IMG/VR virus record: IMGVR_UViG_3300033075_001734
Coordinates: 1 to 51,691 of that record
Direction: 5' to 3' (one strand)
DNA: 51,691 nucleotides
Source: a virus
The notes beneath the pieces are model-generated. The model was given only the letters and a program-made list of their open reading frames with translations. It was not told where the DNA came from and did no database searches. This document shows, piece by piece, positions 1-25,878 of the stretch. The translations under genes and the position numbers were made by a program. Each line of letters opens with the position of its first letter. Position 1 is the stretch's first letter.

Positions 1-27
1 TTGATATATTATGCATAGGAGCATGTA

Positions 28-3036: not shown

Positions 3037-3102
3037 TTAACGGATCAATTAATTCACAATGATAGCAATAAACAGAATACTTAGACACAAGGAAAATAGA
3101 CG

Positions 3103-6150: not shown

Positions 6151-6163
6151 TTAGTAAGGTATT

Positions 6164-6958
6164 TTGCTAAAAGTCATCACACCATCTAAACCGGGTGTTT
6201 ATGAAATAAAAAACATAAACACCGGAATGATTTACGTTGGAGCTTCAAAAGATCCACGTAATAGATGGAAAACGCATATCGCAGCGAGCAAAAGAGCAGA
6301 CGATCTAAACAACTATTTTTACAGTTCATTACGAAAACATGGTAGTGATTCTTTTTCTTTCACGATTGTAAAAGAATTTGATACTTCGTTTGAAGCTTTT
6401 GAATATGAAAATATCAGAATGATCGAATTGCGAGAACTAGGATGCACACTTTACAATAAACATCCGGGTGGTAACGGTCATTTTGTAATGTCTAGCAAAA
6501 TGAAATTAGAACGCTCTGAACGTCTTTTAGGTACAAAATTAAGTAAAGAAATAAAAGAGAAAATTTCTAATTCGTTAAAAGGAAGAACTTTAACTGAGGA
6601 ACATAAAGAAAATATTGGAAAAGGTCTTAGTGTTCCTGAAGTAATTTTGAAACGAAGATTAACAAGAAAAAACGTTAAACTAACTAAAAACACAAAAGAG
6701 AAAATTTCAAATTCACTTAAACTTGCATATAAAAACAAAACAAAAATTGCTAAGCACTCTGGTGAGAGTAATCCACGATCAGTTTTAAATGAAAATGATG
6801 TTAAAGAAATCAGAAATTTGTGGAATTCTTTTATTCAAACTTCATCACTAAAACGTGGCGAAAAAGGAAAATATTATACTGAACTAGCAATTAAGTACAA
6901 TGTTTCACCTTCGAATATTTGTCGTTTAATTACAGGTCGTACTTGGAAAAACGTTTAA
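6164..6958 (+). mobile_element. Free-standing GIY-YIG homing endonuclease with NUMOD3-like repeats and C-terminal HTH
   Basis: It has GVYEIKN...GMIYVGAS (the GIY...YIG motif) with a conserved R (RNRWKTH), a Glu (FEYENIRMIEL) and an Asn. It carries two 'EKISNSLKG' NUMOD3-like repeats and a C-terminal IENR/HTH-like region. It is inserted between the sheath and tube genes. Confidence 0.7.
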
Positions 6959-7164
6959 CACAGATTAATCATGGTTCCACACCTATAGACCAATTTTGAC
7001 AGGGCTCTGATTATTCTCGGGCCGTTGTCGTTTAAACTTAAAGGCAAATTTATTAGTTGTTGCCTAGTTATTTGGGAATCAAAATAATAAGCAAAATAAA
7101 CTGAATTTCGTTTATGATTGACTGATATATAATTTATGAAACGATTAACACACGGAGAATTCTC

Positions 7165-7653
7165 ATGGCTGAAACACTAGACGTAACATCAATGATCCCA
7201 AACAATTTCGAATCAAAGCGAAAAAATCGTTTTATTCTTATGATAGAAGGAATTGATGCTTACATCGTCAAAAAAGCAAGTCGTCCAAAGATTTCAACTG
7301 CACCAATTGCAATTGATTTTATGAATGCACAAAGATTCGTCGCGGGCAAAACAACGTTCGGAACAATGTCAGTTTCTCTTCACGAACCAATTGCACCTTC
7401 GGGAGCACAACAGGTTATGGAATGGATTCGTTTACACTACGAATCTGTATCTGGTCGTTCTGGGTATGCTGATTTCTACAAACGTGACATTCAATTAAAA
7501 CTCGTAGATCCAGTCGGAACTGTTGTTGAATTCTGGGATGGAAAAGGCGCCTTAATTACAGAAGCCGATTTCGGTGATTTAGATTATTCAGCAGGTGATC
7601 TTGCTGAAATTAACTTAACAATTCAATGTGACAATTGGGTTCTTCAGTACTAA
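7165..7653 (+). CDS. Putative tail tube protein (162 aa)
   Basis: Its size and its position just downstream of the sheath genes match T4 gp19/P2 FII-type tubes. The RBS is acggagaa. No diagnostic motif could be verified by eye. Confidence 0.45.
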   Translation: MAETLDVTSMIPNNFESKRKNRFILMIEGIDAYIVKKASRPKISTAPIAIDFMNAQRFVAGKTTFGTMSVSLHEPIAPSGAQQVMEWIRLHYESVSGRSGYADFYKRDIQLKLVDPVGTVVEFWDGKGALITEADFGDLDYSAGDLAEINLTIQCDNWVLQY

Positions 7654-7766
7654 TTTAAGAAACGCAAACGTGTGTTTGATTTTGGTCGGAAATAAATTTT
7701 CTGACCATTTCTTTTTGTTTGTAATGAATGTATTGTAGAATTTAACGATATTATGTATTGTAATAT

Positions 7767-8039
7767 ATGAGTTCATTAACAGATCCATCACTTCATCAAA
7801 AAACAATTGATAGAATCGTTTCATATTTTCACAAAGTTGACAGACCTGTTTTGGTTGGAACTATTTCACTTGAGTATAAGTTTAATTTAAGTCAGACAAA
7901 GATTTTTTTTGATTATCTTGAAGATAAAGGAATTATTAGACAAATGACTGATGATGAAAAGAAAGAAAAACACCTTGATAAAAGATGTGATGCGTATATG
8001 TTAACGTCAAAAGCAGACATTAGTAAGGTTATGGGCTGA
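7767..8039 (+). CDS. Hypothetical protein (90 aa)
   Basis: ORF between tube and tape-measure region; possible tail assembly chaperone by position only. Confidence 0.3.
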   Translation: MSSLTDPSLHQKTIDRIVSYFHKVDRPVLVGTISLEYKFNLSQTKIFFDYLEDKGIIRQMTDDEKKEKHLDKRCDAYMLTSKADISKVMG

Positions 8040-8045
8040 TATGTT

Positions 8046-8258
8046 ATGAAACGAAAAGTGTCATTTAATACGCTTCTTTCGTTTCAAGATATGCTTGACA
8101 CTCTTCTCGTTGAAAATAAAATATCGCTGTCATCATATCATCAACGGTGGGTATCGGCGCTTGATAAAATGGGTTATTCAAATAGTGAATATGAACGTCT
8201 TATTGATGAACGCTGGGATATTATCACGAAAATTTTGACTTTAAAAATGTCGAATTAA
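8046..8258 (+). CDS. Hypothetical protein (70 aa)
   Basis: Small ORF tightly spaced after the previous one; its position is chaperone-like. Confidence 0.3.
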   Translation: MKRKVSFNTLLSFQDMLDTLLVENKISLSSYHQRWVSALDKMGYSNSEYERLIDERWDIITKILTLKMSN

Positions 8259-8291
8259 ACATTTACGTCTCAACAAGAGTGATTACAATTC

Positions 8292-9164
8292 TTGTTAGGA
8301 GTAAATATGTCAGAAGAACGAGAACAACGAAATCAGGTTTTTGGTGGTGAACAGCAACGGTCACACGCGGTGATTAATGCTGAAAAAGTTAAAGCAGATT
8401 TCGGGTTAGATATTCCGAATGAAACTGTTCCATTGCCTTCATGTGGCAAAACATATCATCCACAACATCCTTTGCACAAAGCTGAACGCGTTGATATTCG
8501 TGCAATGACAGCTCGTGAAGAAGATATTCTTACGAGTCCCGCCCTTTTGAAAAAGGGTACAGTAATTACTGAGTTAATTCGTTCATGTCTTGTTGATAAA
8601 CAAATTGATCCTGTTGAACTTTTGACCGGCGATAGAAATGCACTTATGGTTGCAATTCGTATTACGGGTTACGGCGCAGAATATGAAACAGAAGTTGAGT
8701 GCGGTGGATGTAACGTAAAATCAAAACAAGTTTTTAATCTTGCTGAATTACCTATTAAGAGCCTTGAACTTGAACCCGTTGAACCGGGAAGCAATTTATT
8801 TGAATTCGTACTCCCTTATTGCAAAAAGAGTGTCAAGTTTAAATTTATGAACGGTCTTGACGAAGAAGAAATAGTTGTTTCAAGTGAACGTCAAAAGAAA
8901 CTTGGAATGCAGGCGTCAACTTCAGTAACAACAAGTTTGATGCATAGCATAGTGTCAATTGACAATGTAACTGATAAATCAAAAATTAATGCTTTCATAA
9001 AGTTAATGCCAGCACGAGATTCTCTTGCTTTAAGAAATTACATTAAAGAAAATGAACCCGGTTTAAGACTCAAACAAGAAAAATCTTGTCCAATGTGTGA
9101 TCACACTGAGGAGGTCAGTATGCCGCTTGGTGCATCGTTTCTTTGGCCTTCGACCGCAGGATAA
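8292..9164 (+). CDS. Hypothetical zinc-ribbon protein (290 aa), possible tail assembly protein
   Basis: The RBS is ttaggagtaaat-ATG. It has two CxxC pairs (ECGGCN ... CPMCDH). Its 3' end overlaps a +1-frame ORF (9097..9417). Confidence 0.4.
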   Translation: MLGVNMSEEREQRNQVFGGEQQRSHAVINAEKVKADFGLDIPNETVPLPSCGKTYHPQHPLHKAERVDIRAMTAREEDILTSPALLKKGTVITELIRSCLVDKQIDPVELLTGDRNALMVAIRITGYGAEYETEVECGGCNVKSKQVFNLAELPIKSLELEPVEPGSNLFEFVLPYCKKSVKFKFMNGLDEEEIVVSSERQKKLGMQASTSVTTSLMHSIVSIDNVTDKSKINAFIKLMPARDSLALRNYIKENEPGLRLKQEKSCPMCDHTEEVSMPLGASFLWPSTAG

Positions 9165-9417
9165 AGAGACACTAATCTTAGAGCCTGCATTTCTTTTAAT
9201 GTATTATGGTGGTTTTACTTGGCGTGAAACCATCCATTTACCCGTTCAATATAAAAGATGGTTCGTTAATCGAATTGTTAAAGAATTGAATAAATCTTCG
9301 GGAGGAGAAGACGGTGGTGGACAGTCTAGAGCTCTTCATCAAAATTCACCCGAAACTCGTTCAATGCAAGGAATGCAAAGAACACAAACACCATCTAGGT
9401 TAAGAAGATTTACATAG
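9097..9417 (+). CDS. Hypothetical protein in +1 frame overlapping the 3' end of 8292..9164 (GTG start, or frameshift/extension product)
   Basis: The ORF is 106 aa and protein-like (ILEPAFLLMYYGGFTWRETIHLPVQYKRWFVNRIVKEL). It overlaps the upstream ORF by 68 nt. Its own start has no obvious SD, which leaves room for a programmed frameshift. Confidence 0.25.
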   Translation: MITLRRSVCRLVHRFFGLRPQDKETLILEPAFLLMYYGGFTWRETIHLPVQYKRWFVNRIVKELNKSSGGEDGGGQSRALHQNSPETRSMQGMQRTQTPSRLRRFT

Positions 9418-9435
9418 TTATTAATAATTACTTTC

Positions 9436-10536
9436 ATGACTTCTTCTTTAAATCTTCTGCGTGAATATCTCAGATTGATTTTGATTTCTGAAGGTAAGGT
9501 CGAAGACCTCGCCAAGCAGAATCCCAATATTCCTGTCATAGATCTCGCTTCTTCAGATTCAACTCCGACAAAAAAGCTTCTTCCGTGGATGGTGAAACAA
9601 GTTTCCAAAGGTGCTGACGTGGAACACGTCAGATCTGTTGCTTCTCGTTTTGCAAAAGATGGTTCTAGACTCAAGAACAAAGACATAAACTCTTATTCTG
9701 AAATTGATGAATTGGAATCTGTGCTTGATGCACTCGGTGCATCAAAGCGTTCAGAAACAATTCAGGCAAAATCAGGTGCAGTTAAGATTTATGAAGACGA
9801 CGCCTGTACTGTTTTAAGAATCGACACAAAAGAAGCTGCACAACAATATGGAAAAGGCACCAAGTGGTGCATCACAATGGAGAAGCAACAACACTATGAA
9901 ATGTATAAAGCTTCAAACGTGTTGTTCTATTACGTTCTGAGAAAAGAACCACTGAGTGATGATCTTGATAAAGTTGCTCTTGCAGTGTCGAGAGATAAAG
10001 ATAACTTTATTCAAAAAATTCAGGCTTTTGATCAAGCTGATAAAGAAATGACGCCTGATGTTGTGAGTGCACAAGCACTCACAACAGTTAAATCCGATGT
10101 CAAGTCTCAACCAAAAGCCTTTCTTGCTAGAATAAAATCAGGTGATAAATACAGTGATGAGGAATTATTTAGCTATTGGGAAAACCTGGGAACAGAACAA
10201 AACAAAATTGCATTTCTGTGTTCTACAGATCTAATCAAAAAAGAAAAACTTCAGAAACTTCTTTCAGTTGAAAATGATGAAGAAATGAAAGAGATTCTTT
10301 CAGATATGATTTCTGGGAAAGCAGAGATTAAATCTGATTATGTTATATGGCGTAATTCAGCAGGACAACTTCATCGAGACAATGATCAGCCTGCAATAAT
10401 TTATTCTGACGGATCAAAAAAATGGTATCAAAATGGAAAACTGAACAGAGACAATGATCAACCTGCAATAATTTTTGCTGACGGATCAAAAAAATGGTAT
10501 CAAAATGGTCTTGAATATGTTCCTAAGAAAAAGTGA
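9436..10536 (+). CDS. Multicopy family protein, copy A (366 aa): N-terminal helical domain, conserved WCIT core, two C-terminal HRDNDQPA/WY-NG repeats
   Basis: It is one of five paralogs (copies A-E; A-D all lie within 9436..24622, E is at 43099..44802). The N-terminus is MTSSLNLLREYLRLILISEGKVEDLAKQNP. The core is SGAVKIYEDDACTVLRIDTKEAAQQYGKGTKWCITM...NVLFYYVLRKEP. The C-terminus carries the repeats QLHRDNDQPAIIYSDGSKKWYQNGKLNRDNDQPAIIFADGSKKWYQNG. Confidence 0.7.
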   Translation: MTSSLNLLREYLRLILISEGKVEDLAKQNPNIPVIDLASSDSTPTKKLLPWMVKQVSKGADVEHVRSVASRFAKDGSRLKNKDINSYSEIDELESVLDALGASKRSETIQAKSGAVKIYEDDACTVLRIDTKEAAQQYGKGTKWCITMEKQQHYEMYKASNVLFYYVLRKEPLSDDLDKVALAVSRDKDNFIQKIQAFDQADKEMTPDVVSAQALTTVKSDVKSQPKAFLARIKSGDKYSDEELFSYWENLGTEQNKIAFLCSTDLIKKEKLQKLLSVENDEEMKEILSDMISGKAEIKSDYVIWRNSAGQLHRDNDQPAIIYSDGSKKWYQNGKLNRDNDQPAIIFADGSKKWYQNGLEYVPKKK

Positions 10537-10586
10537 TAAATTTGCATTTTATTAATGTTATTTTCCTACATATCTTTTAGGAATAA

Positions 10587-13500
10587 ATGACTATTTCAAA
10601 AGAAGAACTATCTGAGCAACTATTAATTACGCAGAAAATGACGTCTGCTATCGAAATGATGGCAAAGTCAATGTCTAAGATTGAATCTTCTTATGACACA
10701 CAGATTGCCGCAGTTGAAAAATTAACAACTGCAATCGGTAAACTTAAAGGTGAAAACCTTGAAGAACTTGACAAAACAAAGTTCACAAATCTTCAATCTG
10801 AATTTGATAAAACTGAAAAAAATGTAACAAGTTTCTCAGAAAAATTACGTGAAGTTGGAATTAATGTTGGTACGAAGTTTGTTAAACACACGTCTATAGG
10901 CGTTGCTGCATTAAGTGGTTTCGGTAGAGGAATAATCAACATACTTGCATTAGGTAGAAGTACCGCGAGTTTTTTTGCAAGTTTTGTTGATGGCGCTTTA
11001 AGTATTGGCGCCGCGATTATTTCTATTCCATTCAAGATGTTCAATGGGCTTGTTGATATGGCTGCCGCAGCAGGAGGCGGGTCAAATGAGCTCGCGCTGG
11101 CGATTGAACATCTTCGCGACGAGATGGGTAACTTAAAAGAGTCAGGTTCAAAAGCCGTTCTTGATACTGCAAAAACATTTAAAAACTTTGGTGAAACAGG
11201 ACTAAGTGTTTGGCGTGTTTTTGGATCAGTTGCTGAAAGACTTGAAACAGTCATAAAAGTTGCAACTTCAATGGGAGCAACGTTTGGTGTTCTTAAAAAT
11301 GAATTCGTTGAAAACGGTGGTGCCTTATTGGCATATCAAAAAGGTCTTGGTGTTACTGACGAACAAATGAAAGGTCTTGGCGATACGGCACTTATGATGG
11401 GTAAACCAATGTCCCGTATATTTCTTGACATGACCAAACAAACCCTTGCCCTTGGAAAAGCGTTTGATATCGATCAAAAACTTATCGGCAAAGATATGAC
11501 GAAAGCGCTTATCGATGTTGGACATTTTGGTGGCGCTACTGTTAAACAAATTGGTGTTGCGTCTGTTTATGCTCGTAAATTGGGTCTTGAACTTGATAAA
11601 ATCGTTGGAACGCTTGATTCATTTGAAACATTTGATTCTGCCGCTGAAAATGCTGCAAAATTATCACAGGCTTTCGGCGTATCAATTGATGCTTTCAAAA
11701 TGATGGAAGCACAAAGTCCTGCAGATCAACTCGATATGTTGCGAACATCATTTAGAAACGCAGGAGTTGATGCTTCAACATTTTCAAGACAACAATTAAA
11801 ACTACTTTCAACTTCAACCGGGTTGAGCGCCGAAACAGTTAAACAAGCATTTTCAGCAAAAAACTATGGAACTTCACTTGATTCAGTAAACAAAAAAGCA
11901 GATGCAGCCGAAAAGAAAACAATGTCTCAAGCTGAGGCAATGAACCAACTTGCTGACAGCATTAAACGTTTAACGCCTTCGGGAGGATCTCAACTTGGTG
12001 GTTTCTGGGAAACATTTGTTCACGGTTTCATGGGTGGTGTTCAAGCAACAAAAGAATTCCGTGACATAATCTGGAATATTAAAAGAAGTTTAAGAGAAAC
12101 AGAACTTCAAGGCGTCAGATTAGGCCGGGCATTTGTTGCAGCATTTCCTGGTATGAAAGAGTTCTTGGGTGGAATTGGTGATTTCTTTAAACCCGCAAAA
12201 TTTAAATCACTTGCGTCAGGAGTTGTTGATGTTTTTATTAACTTCATGGAAAAGTTAAAAAGTGGTCCTGCGTCTTTTGGTGATCTTATGAAATCACTGC
12301 AAGATCAGTTCTTTAAATTCTTTGATGCATCATCACCAGCTAGTCAAAAAATGATGGAAGGATTTAAGACTGTTTTAAGAACTATTTCAAGTATAGTGTC
12401 GCAAGGTATTGTTTGGGTCTCAACGAAAATTGCTGATGGTGTTGATTTTATATCTGATGTGTTAAGTGGAAATGTTGATTTAGGTAAACTGAGTAATTCT
12501 GGCTCAGAAGGTCTTGGTTTTATTTGGAACATTTTGGAACCCATGATTAAATCACTTGGAAAGGCTTGGGATCTATTATATCCAGCACTTAAGCATCTTT
12601 TTTCAATTGCCCTTACAAAATTATGGACATTCTTAAAATCTGACACAGTAACTGGGCCTTTAAAAGAATATGCACCCCACATTGCCGCTATATTGTTTGG
12701 ACCAGCATTATTACGTGCTCTTATGGCTTCAGGTGGTTGGGCATTAGGAGAAGCAGCAAAAGGCTTATTTTCTAAGGGTTCAAGCATTATGAAAGGCGTT
12801 GCAGATAAAGCCGAGAAAATGAATGAAGCCGGATCTACGCTTAAGAAAGCATCAAAAGGAAGTGATGCAGCTGAAGGAATTTCAAATGCTGCAAAATCTT
12901 CAAAAGCAGCAACTGAACTTGATAAATCTTCAAAATGGGGTGTCGAAGAGGCTGCAAAATTAGGTCTTAAACTTATTGCAATGGCTGGTGCTCTTTCATT
13001 AGGTGGAATAATGATGGCCTATGCGGTTGTTAAAATGTATGACGTGTTAAAATCGGGAGGAATCGTATCGTATAAAGACGCTGCTGCTCCATTATTGGTT
13101 TTGGGAGCAATGGTAACTGCTGCTGTTCCATTAATGTTTGCACTTAAGATTGCAGCAAATGCTGGAAGTCCTAGCGAAGTTGCAAAAGGCGGCGCGCTAA
13201 TTGCTTCAGGATTGTTAATCGTAGGTGGTGTTGGATCAATGCTAACTTATGTTTTGAACCAAGTTGGATCACCTGCAGAATTAAGTGCAGCTGGCAAAAT
13301 GATGGGAATGATGACGCTTGTGTTTCTTGGTATGGTTCCTTTGGTTTTAGGAGCGATGGCCGTCGGCGCAGTCGTTTCTGCTTCGGGTGGAACTGCCCTT
13401 GCGGCGGCAGCAGTTGGTATGGCGACAATGGGAACTGCCGTTGGGGCAGTTGCGACATTGGCGACAGTAATAATTGCTGAACTTAGAGGTATGACAATTG

Positions 13501-14903
13501 AAGCTGGATTTCAGACGAAGATTGATGCATTTTTAAGTATCATGAAAACTATACAGACATTTTCTGATACGCTTGTAAGTCTTGTAAGTTTAATGACACC
13601 ATCAATTGCCGAATTGGTATCAGGAAAAACAAAGACATTTACTGAAAAGGTAAATGCAACCATTGATATGATGAAGGAGATGATTGGTGTTTCAAATACG
13701 GGAACTGGTATCATCGGAATTGTTGAAACTGTTGTAACACAAATTAAGTCATTGTCTTCATATGCCGGAATTGGTGAATCAGCAAAAATCTTTGCTGATG
13801 TTTTAACTGCCGTGTCATCAATTATGCAATACATGACACCTAATCCTGAATTCATGAAAGCGCAAACAAGTTTATTAGGAATTGCAAGCAAACATCTTTT
13901 TGGTGATGATGTTGCAAAGTCAACAACTGATTATGTTAAGTTAATGACTACAACTGTTAAACCGATTATGAACAGTGTAATCGAATCAATGAAAGAACTG
14001 TTGAGTATATCTGTTCCTGATGTTACAAAAGCTCAAGCTCTCGGGAATTTATTAAATACGGTTTCAGGAATTATGAAAGGCATTATGCCTGATCCTGCAT
14101 CATTAAAAGCATTTTCAACAACAGCAAAAGCAGGTATCGGACCGATTGGAACAGAAATAGGTTCACTTGACGCTAGTGGTCTTGCAACGTTTATAGGATC
14201 ATATGCAGAAAAACTTGGAACTTTAATCCCAGCTCTAACGAGTGGAATATTAAACGGGTTAGCGAATAGTGTTGGTTCGTTTGATAAGTCAAAGATTGAA
14301 AGTCTTACAAAGACAGCTGATATATTAACTTCAACGGCAAATTTCATTAAATCAATATCTGACATAAGTAAAATGGACTTTTCAACAAGCAATGAATCAG
14401 AAACTGTAATTCAAAGAATGGTAACATCAATTGATAAAATCATAAGTGAAGAATCAATGAAAGGTATATTTGAAACTTCGGGAAGAATTTCGAAGTACGG
14501 CGTAGCTTTAGGCGCAATTGGAAAAACAATTACGAATAATGGTATAGTTCAAGCCCTCGCCGCCGTGGGAGATATGGTTAAACAAACGCAAATGCTTGAT
14601 GATGCATTAAACGCAGGAACTGAAATTAACGTCGATGCAAAACTTCAGAAACTTGCTCAAGTTACAGGAATTGGTGGAAAGTTTGCGTATACTGTCCAGA
14701 GCAAGGAAGTTGTCATAAATCTTAACATGCAAATTTTCATGGACGTCGCTGAAACAGAAAAAGTTCTTATCATGAACAAAAAATCAATTATTCGTGACAG
14801 ACTTAATTTTGCAACTAATACACCTAATGAAAAAGGACAAAATGTAATTCCTGAAGAGTATCAAAAAATCTTGCCTAATGTTAAACCCGATGGAGCTCCA
14901 TAA
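10587..14903 (+). CDS. Tail tape measure protein (1438 aa)
   Basis: It is very long, with a coiled-coil N-terminus and a central run of Gly/Ala-rich hydrophobic segments (LIAMAGALSLGGIMMAYAVV, MMGMMTLVFLGMVPLVLGAMAVGAVV ...) typical of tape measure proteins. It lies downstream of the chaperone-like region of a contractile-tail module. Confidence 0.65.
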   Translation: MTISKEELSEQLLITQKMTSAIEMMAKSMSKIESSYDTQIAAVEKLTTAIGKLKGENLEELDKTKFTNLQSEFDKTEKNVTSFSEKLREVGINVGTKFVKHTSIGVAALSGFGRGIINILALGRSTASFFASFVDGALSIGAAIISIPFKMFNGLVDMAAAAGGGSNELALAIEHLRDEMGNLKESGSKAVLDTAKTFKNFGETGLSVWRVFGSVAERLETVIKVATSMGATFGVLKNEFVENGGALLAYQKGLGVTDEQMKGLGDTALMMGKPMSRIFLDMTKQTLALGKAFDIDQKLIGKDMTKALIDVGHFGGATVKQIGVASVYARKLGLELDKIVGTLDSFETFDSAAENAAKLSQAFGVSIDAFKMMEAQSPADQLDMLRTSFRNAGVDASTFSRQQLKLLSTSTGLSAETVKQAFSAKNYGTSLDSVNKKADAAEKKTMSQAEAMNQLADSIKRLTPSGGSQLGGFWETFVHGFMGGVQATKEFRDIIWNIKRSLRETELQGVRLGRAFVAAFPGMKEFLGGIGDFFKPAKFKSLASGVVDVFINFMEKLKSGPASFGDLMKSLQDQFFKFFDASSPASQKMMEGFKTVLRTISSIVSQGIVWVSTKIADGVDFISDVLSGNVDLGKLSNSGSEGLGFIWNILEPMIKSLGKAWDLLYPALKHLFSIALTKLWTFLKSDTVTGPLKEYAPHIAAILFGPALLRALMASGGWALGEAAKGLFSKGSSIMKGVADKAEKMNEAGSTLKKASKGSDAAEGISNAAKSSKAATELDKSSKWGVEEAAKLGLKLIAMAGALSLGGIMMAYAVVKMYDVLKSGGIVSYKDAAAPLLVLGAMVTAAVPLMFALKIAANAGSPSEVAKGGALIASGLLIVGGVGSMLTYVLNQVGSPAELSAAGKMMGMMTLVFLGMVPLVLGAMAVGAVVSASGGTALAAAAVGMATMGTAVGAVATLATVIIAELRGMTIEAGFQTKIDAFLSIMKTIQTFSDTLVSLVSLMTPSIAELVSGKTKTFTEKVNATIDMMKEMIGVSNTGTGIIGIVETVVTQIKSLSSYAGIGESAKIFADVLTAVSSIMQYMTPNPEFMKAQTSLLGIASKHLFGDDVAKSTTDYVKLMTTTVKPIMNSVIESMKELLSISVPDVTKAQALGNLLNTVSGIMKGIMPDPASLKAFSTTAKAGIGPIGTEIGSLDASGLATFIGSYAEKLGTLIPALTSGILNGLANSVGSFDKSKIESLTKTADILTSTANFIKSISDISKMDFSTSNESETVIQRMVTSIDKIISEESMKGIFETSGRISKYGVALGAIGKTITNNGIVQALAAVGDMVKQTQMLDDALNAGTEINVDAKLQKLAQVTGIGGKFAYTVQSKEVVINLNMQIFMDVAETEKVLIMNKKSIIRDRLNFATNTPNEKGQNVIPEEYQKILPNVKPDGAP

Positions 14904-14911
14904 TTACTTTC

Positions 14912-16090
14912 ATGACTTCTTCTTTAAATCTTCTTCAAGAATATCTCAGATTGATTTTGATTTCTGAAGGCAAGGTCGAAGACCTTGCTAAACAGAATCC
15001 CAATGTTCCTGTCATAGATCTCGCTTCTTCAGATTTAACTCCGACAAAAAAGCTTCTTCCGTGGATGGTGAAACAAGTTTCCAAAGGTGCTGACGTGGAA
15101 CACGTCAGATCTGTTGCTTCTCGTTTTGCAAAAGATGGTTCTAGACTCAAGAACAAAGACATAAACTCTTATTCTGAAATTGATGAATTGGAATCTGCGC
15201 TTGATTCTTTGGGAGCGTCAAAACGCTCTCAGGAAATTCAGGCAAAATCAGGTGCAGTTAAGATCTATGAAGACGACGCATGCGTCGTCTTAAGAATTGA
15301 CACAAAAGAAGCTGCTCAACAGTATGGAAAAGGCACCAAGTGGTGCATCACAATGGGGAGGCAACAACACTATGAAGAGTACAAAGCTTCAAACGTGTTG
15401 TTCTATTACGTTCTGAGAAAAGAACCACTGAGTGATGATCTTGACAAAGTTGCTCTTGCAGTAATGAGAGATGAAAAAAACGTTGTGAAACAAGTTCAGG
15501 CTTTTAATCAAGCTGATAAAAAAATGACACCTGAAAATGCGAGTGTGAGTGCACAAGCACTCACAGCAGTTAAATCAGATGTCAAGTCTCAACCAAAAGC
15601 CTTTCTTGCTAGAATAAAGTCGGGTGATAAATACAGTGATGAGGAATTGTTTAGCTATTGGGAAAACCTGGGAACAGAACAGAACAAACTTTCATTTCTG
15701 TGTTCTGAACAGTTAAACGAAAAAGATACGCTTCGAAAACTTCTTCAGGTTGAATCTGACAAAAAAATGAAAGAAATTCTTTCAGATATGATTTCTGGGA
15801 AAGCAGTTTCTTTTTATGATGGAATTAAATGGAAAAATAAAAACGGTCAACTACACAGAGACAATGATCAACCTGCAGTGATTTATTCTGACGGATCAAA
15901 AGTTTGGTATCAAAATGGTCAACGTCATCGAGACAATGATAAGCCTGCAATGATTTATGCTGATGGATCAAAAGAATGGTATCGAAATGATCTACTTCAT
16001 CGAGATAATGATCAACCTGCAGTGATTTATGATGATGGAACAAAAGAATGGTATCGAAATGGTCTTAAATACGTTCCTAAGAAAAAATGA
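14912..16090 (+). CDS. Multicopy family protein, copy B (392 aa), four C-terminal repeats
   Basis: It has the same N-terminal and core sequence as copy A, with four HRDNDxPA...WY.NG repeats. Its ATG is 8 nt after the tape-measure stop, within the shared 'TAATTACTTTC-ATG' junction. Confidence 0.7.
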   Translation: MTSSLNLLQEYLRLILISEGKVEDLAKQNPNVPVIDLASSDLTPTKKLLPWMVKQVSKGADVEHVRSVASRFAKDGSRLKNKDINSYSEIDELESALDSLGASKRSQEIQAKSGAVKIYEDDACVVLRIDTKEAAQQYGKGTKWCITMGRQQHYEEYKASNVLFYYVLRKEPLSDDLDKVALAVMRDEKNVVKQVQAFNQADKKMTPENASVSAQALTAVKSDVKSQPKAFLARIKSGDKYSDEELFSYWENLGTEQNKLSFLCSEQLNEKDTLRKLLQVESDKKMKEILSDMISGKAVSFYDGIKWKNKNGQLHRDNDQPAVIYSDGSKVWYQNGQRHRDNDKPAMIYADGSKEWYRNDLLHRDNDQPAVIYDDGTKEWYRNGLKYVPKKK

Positions 16091-16150
16091 TAAGTAAACA
16101 ATAGGAATTTATATGAAAGATAAGAATCGTTAATTAATTGAAAGTATATA

Positions 16151-19100
16151 ATGTCAGGTACAAAAACAGGAACAGGCGGGTTTGAAATTGATAACAAAAC
16201 GTACAGTTTTGATCCTGGTGATCCGTCTTCACCTGGACAAGAACCGATACAAACAGATCGTGGCGATATAATTGTTGATCATACTCCTAAAGATCTTGGA
16301 AAGAAAACTCGTGCAACGCTTGGGAAATATTTAAGCGATGTAACAAAAGGTGAAGCTGGTTCTAACACACGAAGATCAAACACTTTTACCGTGGATCCTC
16401 CAAGATCATCTGAGCAACCTGATGAAATAATGTTATCTGACGACAAGGGAAATCCTATTAAATTAACGCCATCACCAAATTCATCACAGTTTTCAAGAGA
16501 ATCTGCCGAACATGATAATCGGGGGGTTGTTTTTGATTCACCTGATTTAAAGTCATGGTCTCAAACAATTTCCAATCCAAGAACTGAAATTCACGATAAA
16601 AACATTAGTGGACATACACTTTTACCCAGCGTGGGAAAAGACAAAGTTCCAGCTCCAATTGAATCGTATAGAAAGACAGTTTTAAGAGCAAATCGTTTTT
16701 CTTCAGTAGATCGCATGTCAAATGACAAGACATATAAAATCAAAGGAAGAACTTATAATGGAGCACAATTAAAACAAGTCGGCGCTATGCTTTCGCTCCG
16801 TGGAAGTCAAGAATTTCCAGCCGCGTTTAATGACAGTGTAAATCCTGTTAACGCTGGTTCTGTTGCCGGTGCAATTCTTCCAAGCCCTAATCAATTGGGA
16901 ATTCTTAAGGTTCCAAATAAATTATTACAAACTCAAGACGCTCTTGAGCATCTTGCAAATACAACAGACGAACCAATTGAACTTGAAATAGCTCCTTTGG
17001 GAAATCAATCTTGGGGAGCATTAAATAACGTTGAAGAACCTTTTGCTGGTGTTTTGAACGTCGGTATGATTGCGATGGCTCTCGCAATGCAAGCTGCAAT
17101 GATGTTAGCGTTTAAAGGTTTGGGATCTTTGATCGGATTAATGGGAAATTCAAAAGTACCTGTGAGTTCAACAAAAGATTATGCCGGAAGATATACATTG
17201 GGTGAATATTTAACTTCTCCCAATAAAGGAAAAAGTGGATTAAGTTTCCCACCAAATTTAGCTTTATTATTGGGTCTAAAAGGAACACGACATCCGTTTG
17301 ATTCTGCTTTAGATGCAGGTGCTAAAGCATTTTTTATGGGAGGAAAAACAACTACAGAAACACTTTCTTCTGCACTGTCTGATGCACTTTCAGATTCAAC
17401 TTCAGCGGGTCATTTAATTATTGTTTCACGTCTTATCATAAGAACTGGTCAATCTGTTGCGAGTGACATATCAAAAATAGGAAAAGCATTTGCATCAAAT
17501 CCTGTTAGTGGGATTAAGAGCGTTGTTAGTTTATTAGCAAATATACGTAAATCTAAGTTAATTGTAGCGATGAACTTATTTGCTACGTTAGGTGACGTTA
17601 TTTTAAGCGAATCAGATTGGGAAAAAGATCCTGAAGGTCGTGGCTCACCAATGGATGCATTCGAAGACAGCTCGCCGGGAGCTTCTATATCTAAAAACAG
17701 ATTAAAAAACAAACTCAAATTAGCGTGGGCATCGAACAGATCGCCGGCGATGTATCTTATTCCAGATTCTCTTGCGTCAATGAGTGTCACCGATACTCAT
17801 TTAGGTGGATTTAAAGGTGCTTTAGGAATTCATGATCCTGATACGAAATCAAACATTATCGTTCAAAGTATGAATGATAAAGAAAATGGCACAAGGATTG
17901 CAAGGAACTCAAAGAAACCTGATCAAATTGATGTTGTAAAAATGGAGGCATTACTTGAATCTGAATATATGCCATTTTATTTTCATGATTTACGAACGAA
18001 TGAAATCATTTCATTTCATGCATTTATGGCATCTTTGTCTGATGATTTTACGCCGACCTGGGAAAATGTAGAAGGTTTTGGTCGTGTTGAACCTGTGAAA
18101 ATTTACAAAGGAACACAACGTAAAATTGGAATGAGTTTTTATGTTGTTTCAACGAGCGAAGAAGACTTTGATGAAATGTGGGTAAAAATAAATAAACTTG
18201 TTACGCTCATTTATCCACAATATACCAAAGGAAGAACACTTCAAAGCGAAGATTCAAAATACAAATTTACACAACCCTTTAGTCAACTTGTGGGTGCAAG
18301 TCCACTCATAAGAATTCGTCTTGGTGATCTGTTTAAATCAAATTATTCTAGATTTGCGCTTGCTAGATTATTTGGTGCAGCAGATAACGATATGAAACTT
18401 AATGATCAAAATATAAAATTTGAAGGTGTAACAAAAGAAGATTTAGATAAGGTTGTTAATGACGCAAAAGCAAACCCCACTACAGTATATAAACTTAGCT
18501 TCGGTGGTTGGAAAAGACAAGAAGATGGGCCTGGTTCTTCTGAACCTCCTTATGCAGAAACGCTTAACGTTGATTATGGTGATTTACATTATTTTAATTT
18601 CAAAATAGTTAAACAATCGGCAATTAAATCACCAACTAACTTAAGTGGTTCTGATGTTATTGTAGAAACATTTTTAATGACGCCTGATGATATGATTAGA
18701 GAATTTGGTTATGATAAAAAGGAAGCGTCAAAAAATCATTATAGGTTGGGTTATAAATACGGTTTTTCCGGAAATCCAAAAACTAGAGTTATATCCGCAA
18801 AATATATTGTTCCTCGAGGTGCATTAGTACCTGATAGAAATTCATTAAACGTTGCGTTTGCAGCAAACAACAAAATAAACCAAAATAAAACGAACATTGA
18901 TGAACTTTCAAAATTTTTAAGCGAAAAAAATGCCCTTGTTAAATCGTTCAGTTCAGTTCAAGGTAAAGGTTTGGCAGGAGTAATTGATTCATTGAATTTT
19001 GATTGGTATGATAAAATTACATGGGAAATAAAACCTGGCAGCAAAGCGCCTAAAATGTGTAAAATAACTCTTGGATTTTCTCCTGTTCATGATATTTCAC

Positions 19101-19198
19101 CGGGAATTGATCATTTTGGCTATAACAGAGCACCTGTGTATAACGTCGGTGGTCTTATGGGTCAAGGATATGACAGTGATGGGAAGAAAGAAGAGTAA
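16151..19198 (+). CDS. Large putative tail/baseplate structural protein (1015 aa)
   Basis: The call rests on position (immediately after the tape measure region in a tail module) and size. No motif was recognised. Confidence 0.3.
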   Translation: MSGTKTGTGGFEIDNKTYSFDPGDPSSPGQEPIQTDRGDIIVDHTPKDLGKKTRATLGKYLSDVTKGEAGSNTRRSNTFTVDPPRSSEQPDEIMLSDDKGNPIKLTPSPNSSQFSRESAEHDNRGVVFDSPDLKSWSQTISNPRTEIHDKNISGHTLLPSVGKDKVPAPIESYRKTVLRANRFSSVDRMSNDKTYKIKGRTYNGAQLKQVGAMLSLRGSQEFPAAFNDSVNPVNAGSVAGAILPSPNQLGILKVPNKLLQTQDALEHLANTTDEPIELEIAPLGNQSWGALNNVEEPFAGVLNVGMIAMALAMQAAMMLAFKGLGSLIGLMGNSKVPVSSTKDYAGRYTLGEYLTSPNKGKSGLSFPPNLALLLGLKGTRHPFDSALDAGAKAFFMGGKTTTETLSSALSDALSDSTSAGHLIIVSRLIIRTGQSVASDISKIGKAFASNPVSGIKSVVSLLANIRKSKLIVAMNLFATLGDVILSESDWEKDPEGRGSPMDAFEDSSPGASISKNRLKNKLKLAWASNRSPAMYLIPDSLASMSVTDTHLGGFKGALGIHDPDTKSNIIVQSMNDKENGTRIARNSKKPDQIDVVKMEALLESEYMPFYFHDLRTNEIISFHAFMASLSDDFTPTWENVEGFGRVEPVKIYKGTQRKIGMSFYVVSTSEEDFDEMWVKINKLVTLIYPQYTKGRTLQSEDSKYKFTQPFSQLVGASPLIRIRLGDLFKSNYSRFALARLFGAADNDMKLNDQNIKFEGVTKEDLDKVVNDAKANPTTVYKLSFGGWKRQEDGPGSSEPPYAETLNVDYGDLHYFNFKIVKQSAIKSPTNLSGSDVIVETFLMTPDDMIREFGYDKKEASKNHYRLGYKYGFSGNPKTRVISAKYIVPRGALVPDRNSLNVAFAANNKINQNKTNIDELSKFLSEKNALVKSFSSVQGKGLAGVIDSLNFDWYDKITWEIKPGSKAPKMCKITLGFSPVHDISPGIDHFGYNRAPVYNVGGLMGQGYDSDGKKEE

Positions 19199-19203
19199 TT
19201 CTA

Positions 19204-19497
19204 ATGGCATTCAGTAGATACACAAAAACACCTAAACTCAATTTCGGCGCCCAAGTGGGAACTTCAAACATAATTCCTATTATGCGAGCCGCGATTAAAA
19301 ATGGGTCACTTCCAGTGAAAATAACCATACTTCGGGGCGCAGAAAGACTTGATACAATGGCTGGCTCAATTTATGGTGATTCTCGTTATTGGTGGATTCT
19401 TGCTGCATCAAGTGATATAGGTTGGGGGTTACAAGTTCCTGCTGGGACTATAATTAAGATTCCCGATTTATCTGACGTAATATCGTTGACTAGTTAA
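19204..19497 (+). CDS. Phage tail protein X-like / LysM-like small protein (97 aa)
   Basis: The segment ITILRGAERLDTMAGSIYGDSRYWWILAASSDIGWGLQVPAGTIIKIP fits the P2 gpX/LysM pattern (GDTL...YGD..W..I..AN.L....L..G..L.IP). Its context is baseplate-like. Confidence 0.45.
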   Translation: MAFSRYTKTPKLNFGAQVGTSNIIPIMRAAIKNGSLPVKITILRGAERLDTMAGSIYGDSRYWWILAASSDIGWGLQVPAGTIIKIPDLSDVISLTS

Positions 19498-19509
19498 TAA
19501 TTACTTTCA

Positions 19510-20691
19510 ATGACTTCATCTTTAAATCTTCTTCAAGAATATCTCAGATTGATTTTGATTTCTGAAGGTAAGGTCGAAGACCTCGCCAAGCAGAATCCCA
19601 ATATTCCTGTCATAGATCTCGCTTCTTCAGATTCAACTCCGACAAAAAAGCTTCTTCCGTGGATGGTGAAACAAGTTTCCAAAGGTGCTGACGTGGAACA
19701 CGTCAGATCTGTTGCTTCTCGTTTTGCAAAAGATGGTTCTAGACTCAAGAACAAAGACATAAACTCTTATTCTGAAATTGATGAATTGGAATCTGCGCTT
19801 GATTCTTTGGGAGCGTCAAAACGCTCTCAGGAAATTCAGGCAAAATCGGGTGCAGTTAAGATCTATGAAGACGACGCATGCGTCGTCTTAAGAATCGATA
19901 CAAAAGAAGCTGCACAACAGTATGGAAAAGGCACCAAGTGGTGCATCACAATGAGCGAAGAACAACACTATGAAGAGTACAAAGCTTCAAACGTATTATT
20001 CTATTACGTTCTGAGAAAAGAACCTTTAGGAAATAATCTTGACAAAGTTGCTCTTGTTATGATGAGAGATGAAAATAATTCTGTTCAACAGATTCAAGCT
20101 TTTGATCAGGCTGATGAAGAAATGACACCCAAAAAAGCAGGGGTAAGTGCACAAGCACTCACAGCAGTTAAATCAGATGTCAAGTTTCAACCAAAAGCCT
20201 TTCTCACTAAAATAAAGTCGGGTGATAAATACAGTGATGAGGAACTCATCACATATTGGTCACAACTAGGAACTGAAAAAGATAAACTTGTATTTCTGTG
20301 TTCTGAACAGTTAAACGAAAAAGATACGCTTCGAAAACTTCTTCAGGTTGAATCTGAAAAAAAAATGAAAGAAATTCTTTCAGATTTGATTTCTGGGAAA
20401 GCAGTTTCTTTTTATGATGGAATTAAATGGAAAAATTCAGCAGAACAACTTCACAGAGACGATGATCAACCTGCAGCGATTTATGTTGACGGATCAAAAG
20501 AATGGTATCGAAATGGTCAACGTCACAGAGATAATGATCAACCTGCAGTGATTTATGTTGATGGAACAAAATATTGGTATCGAAATGATCTACTTCATCG
20601 AGATAATGATCAACCTGCAATAATTTATAGCGACGGAATAAAACGTTGGTATAAAAATGGTCTTGAATACGTTCCTAAGGGAAATAAATGA
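19510..20691 (+). CDS. Multicopy family protein, copy C (393 aa), four C-terminal repeats
   Basis: It shares a 259-nt tract that is 100% identical with copy A (19537..19795 vs 9463..9721). Its 3' half is near-identical to copy B. Confidence 0.7.
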   Translation: MTSSLNLLQEYLRLILISEGKVEDLAKQNPNIPVIDLASSDSTPTKKLLPWMVKQVSKGADVEHVRSVASRFAKDGSRLKNKDINSYSEIDELESALDSLGASKRSQEIQAKSGAVKIYEDDACVVLRIDTKEAAQQYGKGTKWCITMSEEQHYEEYKASNVLFYYVLRKEPLGNNLDKVALVMMRDENNSVQQIQAFDQADEEMTPKKAGVSAQALTAVKSDVKFQPKAFLTKIKSGDKYSDEELITYWSQLGTEKDKLVFLCSEQLNEKDTLRKLLQVESEKKMKEILSDLISGKAVSFYDGIKWKNSAEQLHRDDDQPAAIYVDGSKEWYRNGQRHRDNDQPAVIYVDGTKYWYRNDLLHRDNDQPAIIYSDGIKRWYKNGLEYVPKGNK

Positions 20692-23567
20692 CTTTCGAAA
20701 AATTAGACGACATATTCAGAATGATGACACCCACAGATTTGATGGGTGCTCAGAAACTTTCTTTAGGAACAGACAAGAGCATTGATACGAGCCTTGCAAA
20801 AGATTTGATAAACATCATATACGGTACTTCAGGTGCAAGAACAGTTGATCAAATTAGTAAAGATTTAACAACGTTTAGTGCCAAGGCGGAAGAAGCATCA
20901 CAACTTGAACAATTTAAGCGTATTATTCAGTTCTATAAAACAGGCGCGTCTTGTACGGCTTTTGGTTCAGCACCTTTTATTGCAATGGGTTCATCTGGAA
21001 AAGATCCTGTTAATAATGTTACGTTTGAACAAATCATCGGAACTGATATTAAATTAAATGATGTTAAACCATCAAAATCAATGGGAATAATGTTGTGTAA
21101 TTCTGGGTTTATGAGCCCAGCAATAAGAAATTCAGAAAAAGTTGAAAAATTTTTAAATTTCATGCCAACTATAGTCGCTTCTCGAATGATTCCATTACTT
21201 GATGTTGAATTTGCTTTTAAACGTGGTGTTCCTGAAGCAAATATATCGCAACCTCATATGTGGTCACCTGGGCTTTTAAAGTTCTTATTAGGTGGTGATA
21301 ATTCAGTTCTCAAAGATTCAGAATCACCTACATCTATATTGATTAATGCAAATGAAAAACATGGTCTCGACGGTGCGCAATCTGTATCAGGAATGGAAAT
21401 GTTTACTTCACCTCAAACATTGATTAATACAGATCCAACGTCAAACGTAGGGCGCTATGTTGACGTAATTGATCCCATGCGACCATTGATGACACTTGAA
21501 AGTTTTTCAGTGAATATCACACCTAACGTTGGTTTGTATTCATATAAGAAAGCAACTGTCGTTTTCAAATTACATGACAGATCAAGATTGTCTGAAATTG
21601 CAGATCTTATAAGACCACAGGTGTATCAAGATAAAGATTCTGCACCTACTGTTTGGATTACTTATGGTTGGAGACACCCGGTCGAGCCTGGAAATCCTTA
21701 CGCAGATTTTATCAATGAAAATATGCTTGTTAGAGATGCGTATGGAATCATAAACACTCAATTCGAATTTGATCAAATGGGTCAAGTAAACATAACATTA
21801 TCATTATGGACTAAAGGGATCCCAGAAATGAGAACGTCAAATGTTAATGGTGATGGTTCTTTGCAAATAATCAAAGATATACAAGACATTGCAAAAAAAG
21901 TTGCTCGATATAAAAATGCACTAGGAATCTCTTCGAATGGAGGCACAAATCGTGAGATTCGTGGATTTACATTACTTGAATCAGCAGAAAGTGGGACCTA
22001 TCCTTCTGAAATTTCGTCAGACGATATTAAAAAATCACTTAGTGATATCAAAACAAGCTTAAACAGTAAAGATCTAAAACTTGATCAAACAGCAGTTAAA
22101 GGTCTTATTGAACAACTTGAAAAGTTGTATAACCCAAAATATAAAGGTTACGTTAAATTTAAAGAAACACTTGAAACGCAATCAACAATAAAAACAAATG
22201 AAAAATTTCAACAGGTTATTAGCGGTGCAGATCCGTTTTTACCTTCAATTAAAAAGGACGAAAAAAGATTCATTGAATCAAAATCAGTTTCTCACCCATT
22301 AACAAGCCTAATTGAATCTATTAACGAATATTATGGTGAATCTGAAATAAAAGATTTGAAAAATCCAACGGGAACTAAAGTTAAAGGTTTTCAAAAGAAA
22401 GCAGTTTCACTTGGTAAACTAATTTCTGTGTTTATGGCAGAAGCCCTAAAATCACTTGACGGAATTGACGAATTACAATTGTATTTTTATCAGTTTAATA
22501 GTCATGCCGGAAGTTGTGCAGCAGTAAACATCGCTGAATTTCCAATCGACATGCCAGTGTTCTTAGATCAATATCGTGATCACATACAACGAAAAGGAAA
22601 TGAACGAGTTACACTTGAAGAATTTTTAAGACTTGTTATTGATTCGCAGTTACATGATTCAAGAGCAATAGGATATGGTCACAGAAAATATTTCGCTCCA
22701 TACGATCCTTCAAATAAATCACCCGCGCTAAAAAAGGGAATTCCACCTGAAAAATATGAACTTGCAAAAGGTCAGTTTATTATGCCCGCAATTGAGTTGT
22801 ATATTGAAACTGTTCAAGCATCAACATCATTATCAGAACATGATAAATTAAATCAAATTCAAACTTCTTCTGGAAATAATCGTGCAGAACAATACACAAA
22901 AATTATGAGACTTCATATTTTTGACAAGACAAATAATCCTTACAAAATAGCAGATTTATTACTGCAAGGTGACGATGAAATGTCTTTTGTTGAAGCAGAT
23001 AGTGAATATGTTAAACAACAATCGATGTTAAATAGTCTCACACCTAATGAAATCTATAATAGTCATACTGATGGCGACAAATTATTAAAAAACAAAGAAA
23101 GCAAAACCGTTAGTAATAAAGACGTTAAAACGTTTGTGTCAAAAATGGTTCCGACAATTATTCATGGAATGAACGCTTCAAGTGTTTCAAGCGCAAACTT
23201 AGCATCAAAACAAGATCCATTGTTAGCGACAGCGCAAATGCAGGCTTTGGCAAAAGGTCACGGTAAACCTCAGACTTTGTCGCCTAACGGCGCTGACGTA
23301 GGAGGTTTACCTTTAAGAATTATTCCTGCATCATTGACATTAGATTCATTAGGTTGCCCAATGTTATCTTATGGTCAAGTGTTCTTTATTGACTTTAATA
23401 CTGGAACGACTGTTGATAACATGTATCTTATGACTGGGTTGACGCACAATATTTCACCAGGGAAGTTTAGTTCACAAATGACGTTAACTTTTCATGACGC
23501 GTATGGAAAATTCTTCAGTGCACCAAAAATTACAGATTACATTAAGTCTCTTAAAGGAACAGAATGA
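20688..23567 (+). CDS. Large putative baseplate/tail structural protein (959 aa)
   Basis: The call rests on position (after the gpX-like gene) and size. It has an ATGA overlap with copy C upstream and with copy D downstream. No motif was recognised. Confidence 0.25.
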   Translation: MTFEKLDDIFRMMTPTDLMGAQKLSLGTDKSIDTSLAKDLINIIYGTSGARTVDQISKDLTTFSAKAEEASQLEQFKRIIQFYKTGASCTAFGSAPFIAMGSSGKDPVNNVTFEQIIGTDIKLNDVKPSKSMGIMLCNSGFMSPAIRNSEKVEKFLNFMPTIVASRMIPLLDVEFAFKRGVPEANISQPHMWSPGLLKFLLGGDNSVLKDSESPTSILINANEKHGLDGAQSVSGMEMFTSPQTLINTDPTSNVGRYVDVIDPMRPLMTLESFSVNITPNVGLYSYKKATVVFKLHDRSRLSEIADLIRPQVYQDKDSAPTVWITYGWRHPVEPGNPYADFINENMLVRDAYGIINTQFEFDQMGQVNITLSLWTKGIPEMRTSNVNGDGSLQIIKDIQDIAKKVARYKNALGISSNGGTNREIRGFTLLESAESGTYPSEISSDDIKKSLSDIKTSLNSKDLKLDQTAVKGLIEQLEKLYNPKYKGYVKFKETLETQSTIKTNEKFQQVISGADPFLPSIKKDEKRFIESKSVSHPLTSLIESINEYYGESEIKDLKNPTGTKVKGFQKKAVSLGKLISVFMAEALKSLDGIDELQLYFYQFNSHAGSCAAVNIAEFPIDMPVFLDQYRDHIQRKGNERVTLEEFLRLVIDSQLHDSRAIGYGHRKYFAPYDPSNKSPALKKGIPPEKYELAKGQFIMPAIELYIETVQASTSLSEHDKLNQIQTSSGNNRAEQYTKIMRLHIFDKTNNPYKIADLLLQGDDEMSFVEADSEYVKQQSMLNSLTPNEIYNSHTDGDKLLKNKESKTVSNKDVKTFVSKMVPTIIHGMNASSVSSANLASKQDPLLATAQMQALAKGHGKPQTLSPNGADVGGLPLRIIPASLTLDSLGCPMLSYGQVFFIDFNTGTTVDNMYLMTGLTHNISPGKFSSQMTLTFHDAYGKFFSAPKITDYIKSLKGTE

Positions 23568-24622: not shown

Positions 24623-24650
24623 TTTTCTGTAAATTTGATTAAGTTAATTT

Positions 24651-25862: not shown

Positions 25863-25878
25863 AGGAATATGTTGTTAT

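Follow-up and report, generated by a model that had tools for sequence, protein, structure and literature searches.

How do dispersed copies of one gene within a phage genome come to share long stretches of identical nucleotides? The question is raised by IMG/VR virus record IMGVR_UViG_3300033075_001734, 51,691 nucleotides (nt) of DNA from an uncultured large T4-like myovirus (the whole stretch is called the window below), which carries five paralogous open reading frames (ORFs), named copies A to E. An initial annotation of this DNA had attributed the identical tracts shared by copies A, B and C to gene conversion or to very recent transposition. The analysis reported here indicates that these genes probably belong to a recently expanded cassette family that has been homogenised and reshuffled by ectopic gene conversion. 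The copies are mosaics, they carry strain-specific patches, and the contents of the genomic slots in which they lie turn over; from the pattern of tracts and mosaics we infer that the exchange was non-reciprocal.

Copies A, B and C share exact tracts within a mosaic

A repeat finder recovered five in-register copies, starting at 9436, 14912, 19510, 23552 and 43099, which correspond to five paralogous ORFs, all on the + strand (Table 1), in agreement with the number of copies proposed initially. A sixth copy (Z), seen in contig L087, ends ~70 nt upstream of position 1, so that the family has at least six copies in or beside the window, and more are present elsewhere in related genomes. Homology among A, B and C runs from 12-14 nt upstream of the ATG to the stop codon, and includes a 12-nt leader, ATAATTACTTTC, in front of A (9424-9435), B (14900-14911) and C (19497-19508). 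These are the only exact matches to the leader within the window; a leader-like match at 51300 was considered and rejected as a further family copy. Copy B starts 9 nt past the stop codon of a 1438-amino-acid (aa) ORF, and the stop of copy C overlaps the start of a 959-aa ORF.

Direct comparison confirmed that A and C are identical over exactly 259 nt, with a mismatch immediately beyond both ends of the tract. Identity across all three copies is also real, although its length is 161 nt and not the ~190 nt that had been claimed, because B departs from A and C at six sites between 9495 and 9560. B and C remain identical for longer (213 nt, the first 161 of which are also those of A), and their likeness in the 3' halves holds as well: the 3' string quoted for them occurs exactly twice in the window, and the 5' string quoted for all three occurs exactly three times.

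Synonymous divergence (dS) changes abruptly along the genes. In a codon alignment of A and C, there were no synonymous changes at 58.7 sites in codons 11-96 against 18.2 at 39.3 sites in codons 97-160 (Fisher p=3e-9), giving dS of 0 and 0.72, respectively. Along the gene, dS took values of 0.07, 0.63, 0.11, 0.31 and 0.56 for A-B, and 0.07, 0.15, 0.49, 0.21 and 0.20 for B-C; codons 97-160 form the single segment of the N-terminal half with high dS in all three pairs. Three-taxon site patterns fell into at least five successive blocks, the groupings being, in order, (B,C), (A,C), (B,C), (A,B) and (B,C). When polymorphic sites were shuffled in a GENECONV-style permutation, the longest agreeing runs (117 polymorphic sites for A-C, 97 for B-C and 70 for A-B) were significant at p<=1e-4 in each of the three pairs, and this result held for third codon positions alone. 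The gene-conversion signature proposed at the outset is therefore borne out by dS that varies from 0 to 0.7 within one gene pair, by alternating groupings and by significant permutations.

Two further comparisons bear on what the identity means. Since D and E are synonymously saturated relative to A, B and C over the same 5' region that holds the exact tracts, protein-level constraint cannot account for the nucleotide identity. The dN/dS analysis that had been suggested for the copies gave ~0.1 in codons 97-160, indicating that they are functional genes, and 0.4-1.0 in the C-terminal half. D is an old, stable paralogue, for which no exchange with A, B or C was detected; it has 84-93% nt identity to its positional orthologue in the syntenic contig L088. 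E is likewise an old paralogue, possibly with an old exchange with A, B or C in codons 97-160, where A-E dS is 0.54 compared with >1.1 in other segments of at least 60 codons.

Strains of the same phage carry different alleles

The same phage, at 97-100% identity, is represented by contigs of other samples. Several of these contigs show alternative paralogue-derived tracts in the same slot of near-identical strains, which adds to the case for gene conversion. L087 is 99.2% identical to window positions 1-14983, yet in its slot-A copy the bases at 9495-9560 are of the B type, those of the window being C-type, and the patch at 9880-9961 is of the C type, unlike that of the copy in the window. 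The 365-aa allele in slot B of L094 has 93.8% identity to A of the window and only 86% to B, and lies between flanks that are 96-98% identical to the window. The same applies to L001 and L002, whose flanking proteins are 96-100% identical (most of them 98-100%) and whose slot copies are 76-91% identical. The slot-A protein of L001, with four repeat units, is 76% identical to that of the window, while the adjacent 1438-aa gene shows two mismatches in 10585-12984 and encodes a protein 99.65% identical. As the 3' end of this L001 allele recurs in L094, from a different sample, over 234 nt with 1 mismatch, the allele is not an assembly accident.

L088 offers a more distant comparison, at about 80-87% nt identity to the window and about 85% in the flanks of slot C. 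Its slot-C copy is 62-80% identical to copy C of the window in four of five segments, and 88% identical in one middle segment. By contrast, C is 84-98% identical to B, and in four of the five segments C is closer to its paralogues A and B than to the slot-C orthologue of L088. This is the pattern that would be expected of an old copy that has been partly overwritten.

Strain mismatches were also raised upstream of slot A over ~0.9-1.9 kb, beginning at ~8.5 kb in L001 and at 7.5 kb in L087. In L001 they end abruptly at the 3' edge of the cassette, with none in the 900 nt from 10585.

Slot contents differ among relatives

Slots A, B and C are without a family copy in three distant relatives (L091, L092 and L093), whose hub protein is 60-64% identical and which have kept the same gene order of hub, 106-aa ORF, 1438-aa ORF, 1015-aa ORF, 97-aa ORF and 959-aa ORF. 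Slot A of these three relatives holds a conserved small ORF of ~97 aa, and slot B of L088, L092 and L093 holds another of ~75-90 aa; both might encode tail assembly factors. The window and L087 lack both small ORFs, and in the window family copies stand in their place. The slot comparison therefore indicates that the family has spread into intergenic slots, or replaced their contents, in this lineage. Elsewhere, the copy in slot G is a precise 1187-nt insertion in L090 compared with the empty slot of L095, with only a 4-nt TGAT ambiguity at the junction, and additional copies flank the terminase gene in related genomes.

The proposal of recent transposition thus stands in part: slots A to C are copy-less in distant syntenic relatives, but exchange after insertion is also needed. 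Taken together, the copy-less slots A-C and the unrelated conserved small ORF in slot B of the closer relative L088 indicate that insertion or replacement and conversion both occurred.

Two kinds of recognised mobile or modular unit were considered for the cassettes and rejected. For a transposon or insertion sequence, profile searches found no transposase family match, there were no terminal inverted repeats at the cassette ends, and slot G showed only the TGAT ambiguity. For flanks of the PeSL type (sigma-70-like promoter and terminator stem-loop), sites were no commoner than by chance: promoter-like sites numbered 54 where 57.8 were expected, terminator-like sites 13 where 9.1 were expected, and none of either kind lay at the edges of A, B or C.

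A proposed route by insertion and ectopic conversion

In the route that we favour, the cassette consists of the 12-nt leader and the ORF, lying between conserved tail, baseplate or replication genes and read together with them on the + strand. Comparison with relatives shows that cassettes were inserted into intergenic slots, or replaced slot contents. Members of the young subfamily (A, B, C, Z and the copy in slot F) would also go on swapping segments by ectopic non-reciprocal homologous recombination, and would thereby leave the observed long identical tracts over a background dS of 0.4-0.7, in mosaics that differ by strain. The catalyst would most likely be the phage's own UvsX/gp32 recombination-dependent replication machinery, and strand invasion may work best in the 5' third, the part of the gene in which constraint on the protein has left the paralogues closest to one another. 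If two of these direct repeats recombined reciprocally, the 1438-aa, 1015-aa, 97-aa or 959-aa genes would be lost, and such events would presumably be purged by selection. The recombination hazard that had been proposed for the bracketed genes may soundly be deduced, because the window contains a UvsX-like gene; no deletion junctions between copies were found, and the only cross-copy junction is that of L085.

A more far-reaching reading, which we regard as doubtful, would see here a contingency multigene system of capsid-packaged or virion-borne effectors, in which the conserved 5' region (leader and first subdomain) would serve as a recombination anchor and UvsX-driven conversion among the dispersed copies would yield new mosaic C-terminal binding modules, in the manner of antigenic-variation cassettes or of a genome-wide version of the internal protein (IP) shuffling of T-even phages. 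Otherwise, the family could be a new type of self-spreading ORF that has no known nuclease and displaces small conserved genes of the tail module.

Alternative explanations

Several observations weigh against homogenisation by ectopic conversion, most of them concerning assembly. The co-existence of all copies and their exact tracts rests on a single metagenomic assembly, breaks within family copies occur in further assemblies of this phage (L001, L002, L083, L084, L086, L087 and L094, with contigs of five other samples starting or ending there), and no independent contig reproduces the 5' tract of A or C found in the window. In addition, L085 connects sequence from upstream of one slot with sequence from downstream of another: over its positions 1-7128, compared with L004 3935-10687 and window 20583-25959, the slot-F upstream genes (minus-strand gp25-like and NUDIX, as in L004) are followed by a family copy that is shorter by two repeat units, and this copy by the downstream side of slot C. 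A real recombinant genome and a chimeric assembly explain L085 equally well. Because of the breaks inside copies and this cross-slot join, mis-assembly at the repeats is a real possibility. Several strains 1-3% apart are also present across the sampled metagenomes, and a short-read assembler could have collapsed, bubble-popped or mis-threaded near-identical paralogues or strains. We nevertheless consider it unlikely that an artefact of this kind explains the pattern. Only one exact node >66 nt is common to A, B and C, and the six sites at which B differs (9495-9560) lie no more than 100 nt from the A-specific bases 9459-9462, so that single reads or k-mers of at least 127 link them. The assembler held B apart from A and C, each flank-to-flank join matches the gene order of copy-less relatives, and mosaic alleles appear in independent assemblies, with one allele end found at 99.6% in two samples. 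A separate point against the reading is that sequence alone cannot separate conversion from double crossover between co-infecting genomes.

If assembly is accepted, the tracts could still have other origins. That A, B and C are simply very young duplicates or transposed copies, with no exchange after insertion, would fit the empty slots A-C of distant relatives, the absence of a family copy from slot B of L088 and the cassette-like leader common to the three. This explanation, however, predicts one tree and roughly uniform dS, as opposed to the 0 to 0.72 found within one pair and the three alternating groupings; moreover, C retains orthologous signal to the L088 slot-C copy in only one segment, and positional orthologues in 99%-identical strains differ by paralogue-type patches, making it very unlikely. 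Selfish mobility, with the family protein acting as a cryptic homing-type nuclease or depending on a neighbouring homing endonuclease gene (HEG), so driving the spread of the cassette, and with repair-associated co-conversion yielding the tracts, would be in keeping with the presence/absence and replacement polymorphism at slots A, B, C and G between conserved genes, as in T4 seg/mob, with the HEG-rich window and with the raised strain divergence upstream of slot A and its sharp stop in L001. Against it, the acidic residues and lysine common to the five copies are not kept in the wider family, homologues bear protein-binding repeats (HEAT, LRV, LRR, ankyrin), the homologue of phage PA5oct is a virion protein, and the presence of an A-like allele in slot B misfits slot-specific targeting; we consider it quite unlikely. 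Finally, in every case the longest tracts lie in one and the same 5' region, and a 115-aa antisense ORF at 9339-9686 overlaps A, as would be the case if the 5' tract were under nucleotide-level constraint because it held a regulatory element of DNA or RNA, or else an antisense gene. The tract, however, folds no better than shuffled sequences (z=+0.33) and has no Rfam match, nothing corresponding to the antisense ORF is present in B or C, and the slot-A copies of L087 and L001 depart from the tract at 8-13 sites, D and E by 20-37%, which leaves this explanation with next to no probability.

Relation to known systems

Ectopic conversion among the copies would amount to classical concerted evolution acting on an uncharacterised gene family, a well-supported interpretation that invokes a process already well known in other organisms, the globin and MUP gene families being among the examples. 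Ectopic gene conversion also homogenises dispersed multigene families such as bacterial rRNA operons (PMC8022953). The phage family resembles these cases in its identical tracts within diverged sequence, in the heterogeneity of dS along the gene, in paralogues of one genome being closer than positional orthologues and in the location of tracts where identity is already highest. It differs from them in residing in a virus genome, interleaved with essential structural genes, in having a homogenised 5' part and a diverse 3' part with repeat-number variation, and in its polymorphic slot occupancy. A literature search on gene conversion among jumbo-phage paralogues found nothing directly relevant.

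Among phages, the closest systems are the shuffling of internal-protein cassettes in T-even phages and PeSL-mediated modular shuffling. T-even IP loci encode diverse packaged anti-defence proteins whose sole shared part is a conserved capsid-targeting leader (PMC3012670). In both these loci and the family described here, a T4-like phage carries variable ORFs whose 5' end is conserved, and close relatives differ by cassette-like replacement; IP genes, however, are small, are clustered at one locus and share only ~10 codons, whereas the family proteins have 350-570 aa, are dispersed over >45 kb among genes for the tail and for replication, and share ~100 conserved codons. Repoila et al. in 1994 reportedly proposed that recombination in the leader shuffles the IP genes. 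PeSL-mediated shuffling operates in the hyperplastic regions of T4-type phages (PMC2839356, PMC4122927). There too, accessory ORFs are gained, lost or replaced between close T4-like phages, by homologous recombination that uses short dispersed repeats; in the present family the recombining homology is coding sequence, and the slots lie inside the conserved tail module and not in a hyperplastic region. The free-standing HEGs of the T4 seg/mob type are similar in being paralogous ORFs found singly between conserved genes with presence/absence polymorphism, but the family lacks a detected nuclease domain or fold, and its alleles are exchanged between slots.

Giant phages hold large families of paralogous virion proteins, such as families A, B and C of SPN3US (PMC10052503). 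The likeness to SPN3US lies in the many paralogous virion or ejection proteins of a large phage. Giant viruses have MORN, ankyrin and similar multigene families, and 24-residue repeats of the same type as those at the C terminus here are found in giant-virus proteins. What sets the present family apart from giant-phage paralogue families is ongoing conversion, particular to this lineage: in another jumbo contig the four copies of the domain are diverged at the nucleotide level, so that active homogenisation appears to be a property of the lineage studied here.

The locus thus provides a clean natural example, in multiple strains, of ectopic gene conversion and cassette turnover within a structural module of a large phage that is supposedly stable, and this turnover indicates that accessory-gene flux is not confined to hyperplastic regions. 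It also flags a large uncharacterised domain family that recurs in multiple copies in big phages and is found in the virion of PA5oct. Metagenomic assemblies of this phage group are broken or mis-joined by the repeats, so that any contig running across them needs to be validated with reads.

The family protein

Each copy combines an uncharacterised N-terminal domain with 24-residue MORN-like repeats, whose number differs among alleles from 1 to 4. C and D are 100% identical to database proteins, C being P0004. A confident AlphaFold model (pLDDT 89.6) is helical at the N terminus, continues with a small alpha/beta domain and a helical linker, and ends in beta-hairpin repeats, with short strands across residues 296-361 in the AlphaFold2 model. 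The C-terminal parts of A, B and C did not match the MORN models (PF02493 and PF07661, MORN_2) even at E<=10, and the close homologue P0012 scored 24.6 bits against a MORN cutoff of 29.6, below the Pfam gathering threshold; matches in BFVD span 58-72 alignment columns at 34-56% identity, and one of them is named MORN repeat-containing. The N-terminal domain has no Pfam model. It is found in 4,339 cluster representatives (50% identity, E<=1e-3), is multi-copy in other jumbo contigs, and elsewhere occurs in fusions with HEAT, LRV, LRR, DUF4116 or ankyrin repeats. Certain metagenomic proteins with lengths of 1000-1850 aa (P0093, P0095, P0100 and others) hold 2-5 N-terminal domains in tandem.

The protein may be a virion-associated or packaged accessory protein or effector with a fast-evolving C-terminal binding module. 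Its PA5oct homologue, gp205, was detected in the virion by mass spectrometry. Close to residue 19, the motif L-[IL]-x-E-G-[KR]-[VI]-[DE]-D is kept across the family, with E19 nearly invariant, and gp205 begins MKLFEVFTLYE (L081 5866-5900). The cleavage consensus of the T4 prohead protease is LxE/IxE. The resemblance of the N-terminal motif and of the gp205 start to a T4 capsid-targeting leader or protease site is a possible lead more than a result, and the window contains no prohead protease gene. No nuclease domain or fold (GIY-YIG, HNH, LAGLIDADG, PD-(D/E)xK or EDxHD) was detected in the family protein; a PD-(D/E)xK reading of E120/D121...D130-x-K132 was rejected since these residues are not kept in the wider family.

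Genome context

Genes for the tube, baseplate hub, ribonucleotide reductase, thymidylate synthase and polynucleotide kinase are present in the window, together with several homing endonuclease genes. A syntenic relative was found on a 369-kb contig; a near-identity search against GenBank phages gave no close match, and neither did a scan of metagenome contigs by protein pattern and exact 32-mer. No tRNAs were found. The 1438-aa ORF had been labelled a tape-measure gene, a name suggested only by its position beside hub and baseplate genes: homology gives no evidence either way, as Pfam, PHROG, PDB-sequence and INPHARED tblastn searches returned no match.

Table 1 Coordinates of the family copies, shared tracts and neighbouring features (window positions unless a contig is named)
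Feature	Position	Strand	Details
Copy A	9436-10536	+	366 aa, 2 MORN-like units
Copy B	14912-16090	+	392 aa, 3 MORN-like units
Copy C	19510-20691	+	393 aa, 3 MORN-like units
Copy D	23564-24622	+	352 aa
Copy E	43099-44802	+	567 aa, additional C-terminal domain
A=C tract	9463-9721 = 19537-19795	+	259 nt exact
A=B=C tract	9561-9721 = 15037-15197 = 19635-19795	+	161 nt exact
B=C tract	15037-15249 = 19635-19847	+	213 nt exact; first 161 nt also = A
B=C 3'-half string	15704-15759 = 20302-20357	+	within 66-nt exact B=C run
72-nt tandem array in B	15840-16064	+	3.1 units, encodes 24-residue MORN-like repeats
72-nt tandem array in C	20448-20663	+	counterpart of B array
1438-aa conserved structural ORF	10587-14903	+	bracketed by A and B
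1015-aa ORF and 97-aa gp25-like baseplate wedge ORF	16151-19497	+	bracketed by B and C
959-aa conserved ORF	20688-23567	+	bracketed by C and D
Small ORFs beside 1438-aa gene	L093 8194-8472, 13105-13374		slots A, B
Small ORFs beside 1438-aa gene	L092 11175-11465, 15258-15524		slots A, B
Small ORF	L088 2338-2565		slot B
Tandem tail-sheath paralogues (two)	28-3036, 3103-6150		~1000 aa each, ~32% identical
GIY-YIG homing endonuclease gene	6164-6958		between sheath and tube
gp32-like single-stranded DNA-binding protein	26873-27718
HEG-like DUF7487 ORF	27825-28781		overlaps UvsX gene start; absent from L088
UvsX/RecA-like recombinase	28697-29923	+
5'-3' exonuclease	31040-31993
DnaB-like helicase	31990-33402
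HNH gene	50260-50793

Some neighbouring genes showed features of their own. The tandem sheath pair is kept in the distant relatives L091 and L092. Directly downstream of D, an A-family DNA polymerase ORF (24651-25862, 403 aa) matches only the C-terminal part of polymerase profiles, which suggests that the polymerase gene may be split. The ORF that runs off the end of the window (~51019-51691) encodes LRV/HEAT-like repeats (DANVRAFVARVAP, NNAVRAVVARRLP); repeats of that kind make up the C-terminal region in distant members of the family. In the relatives L095 (15581-21206) and L090 (12822-15278), the portal ORF has 2010 aa with three intein-splicing matches, and the terminase gene is apparently split in L090 and intact (540 aa) in L095.

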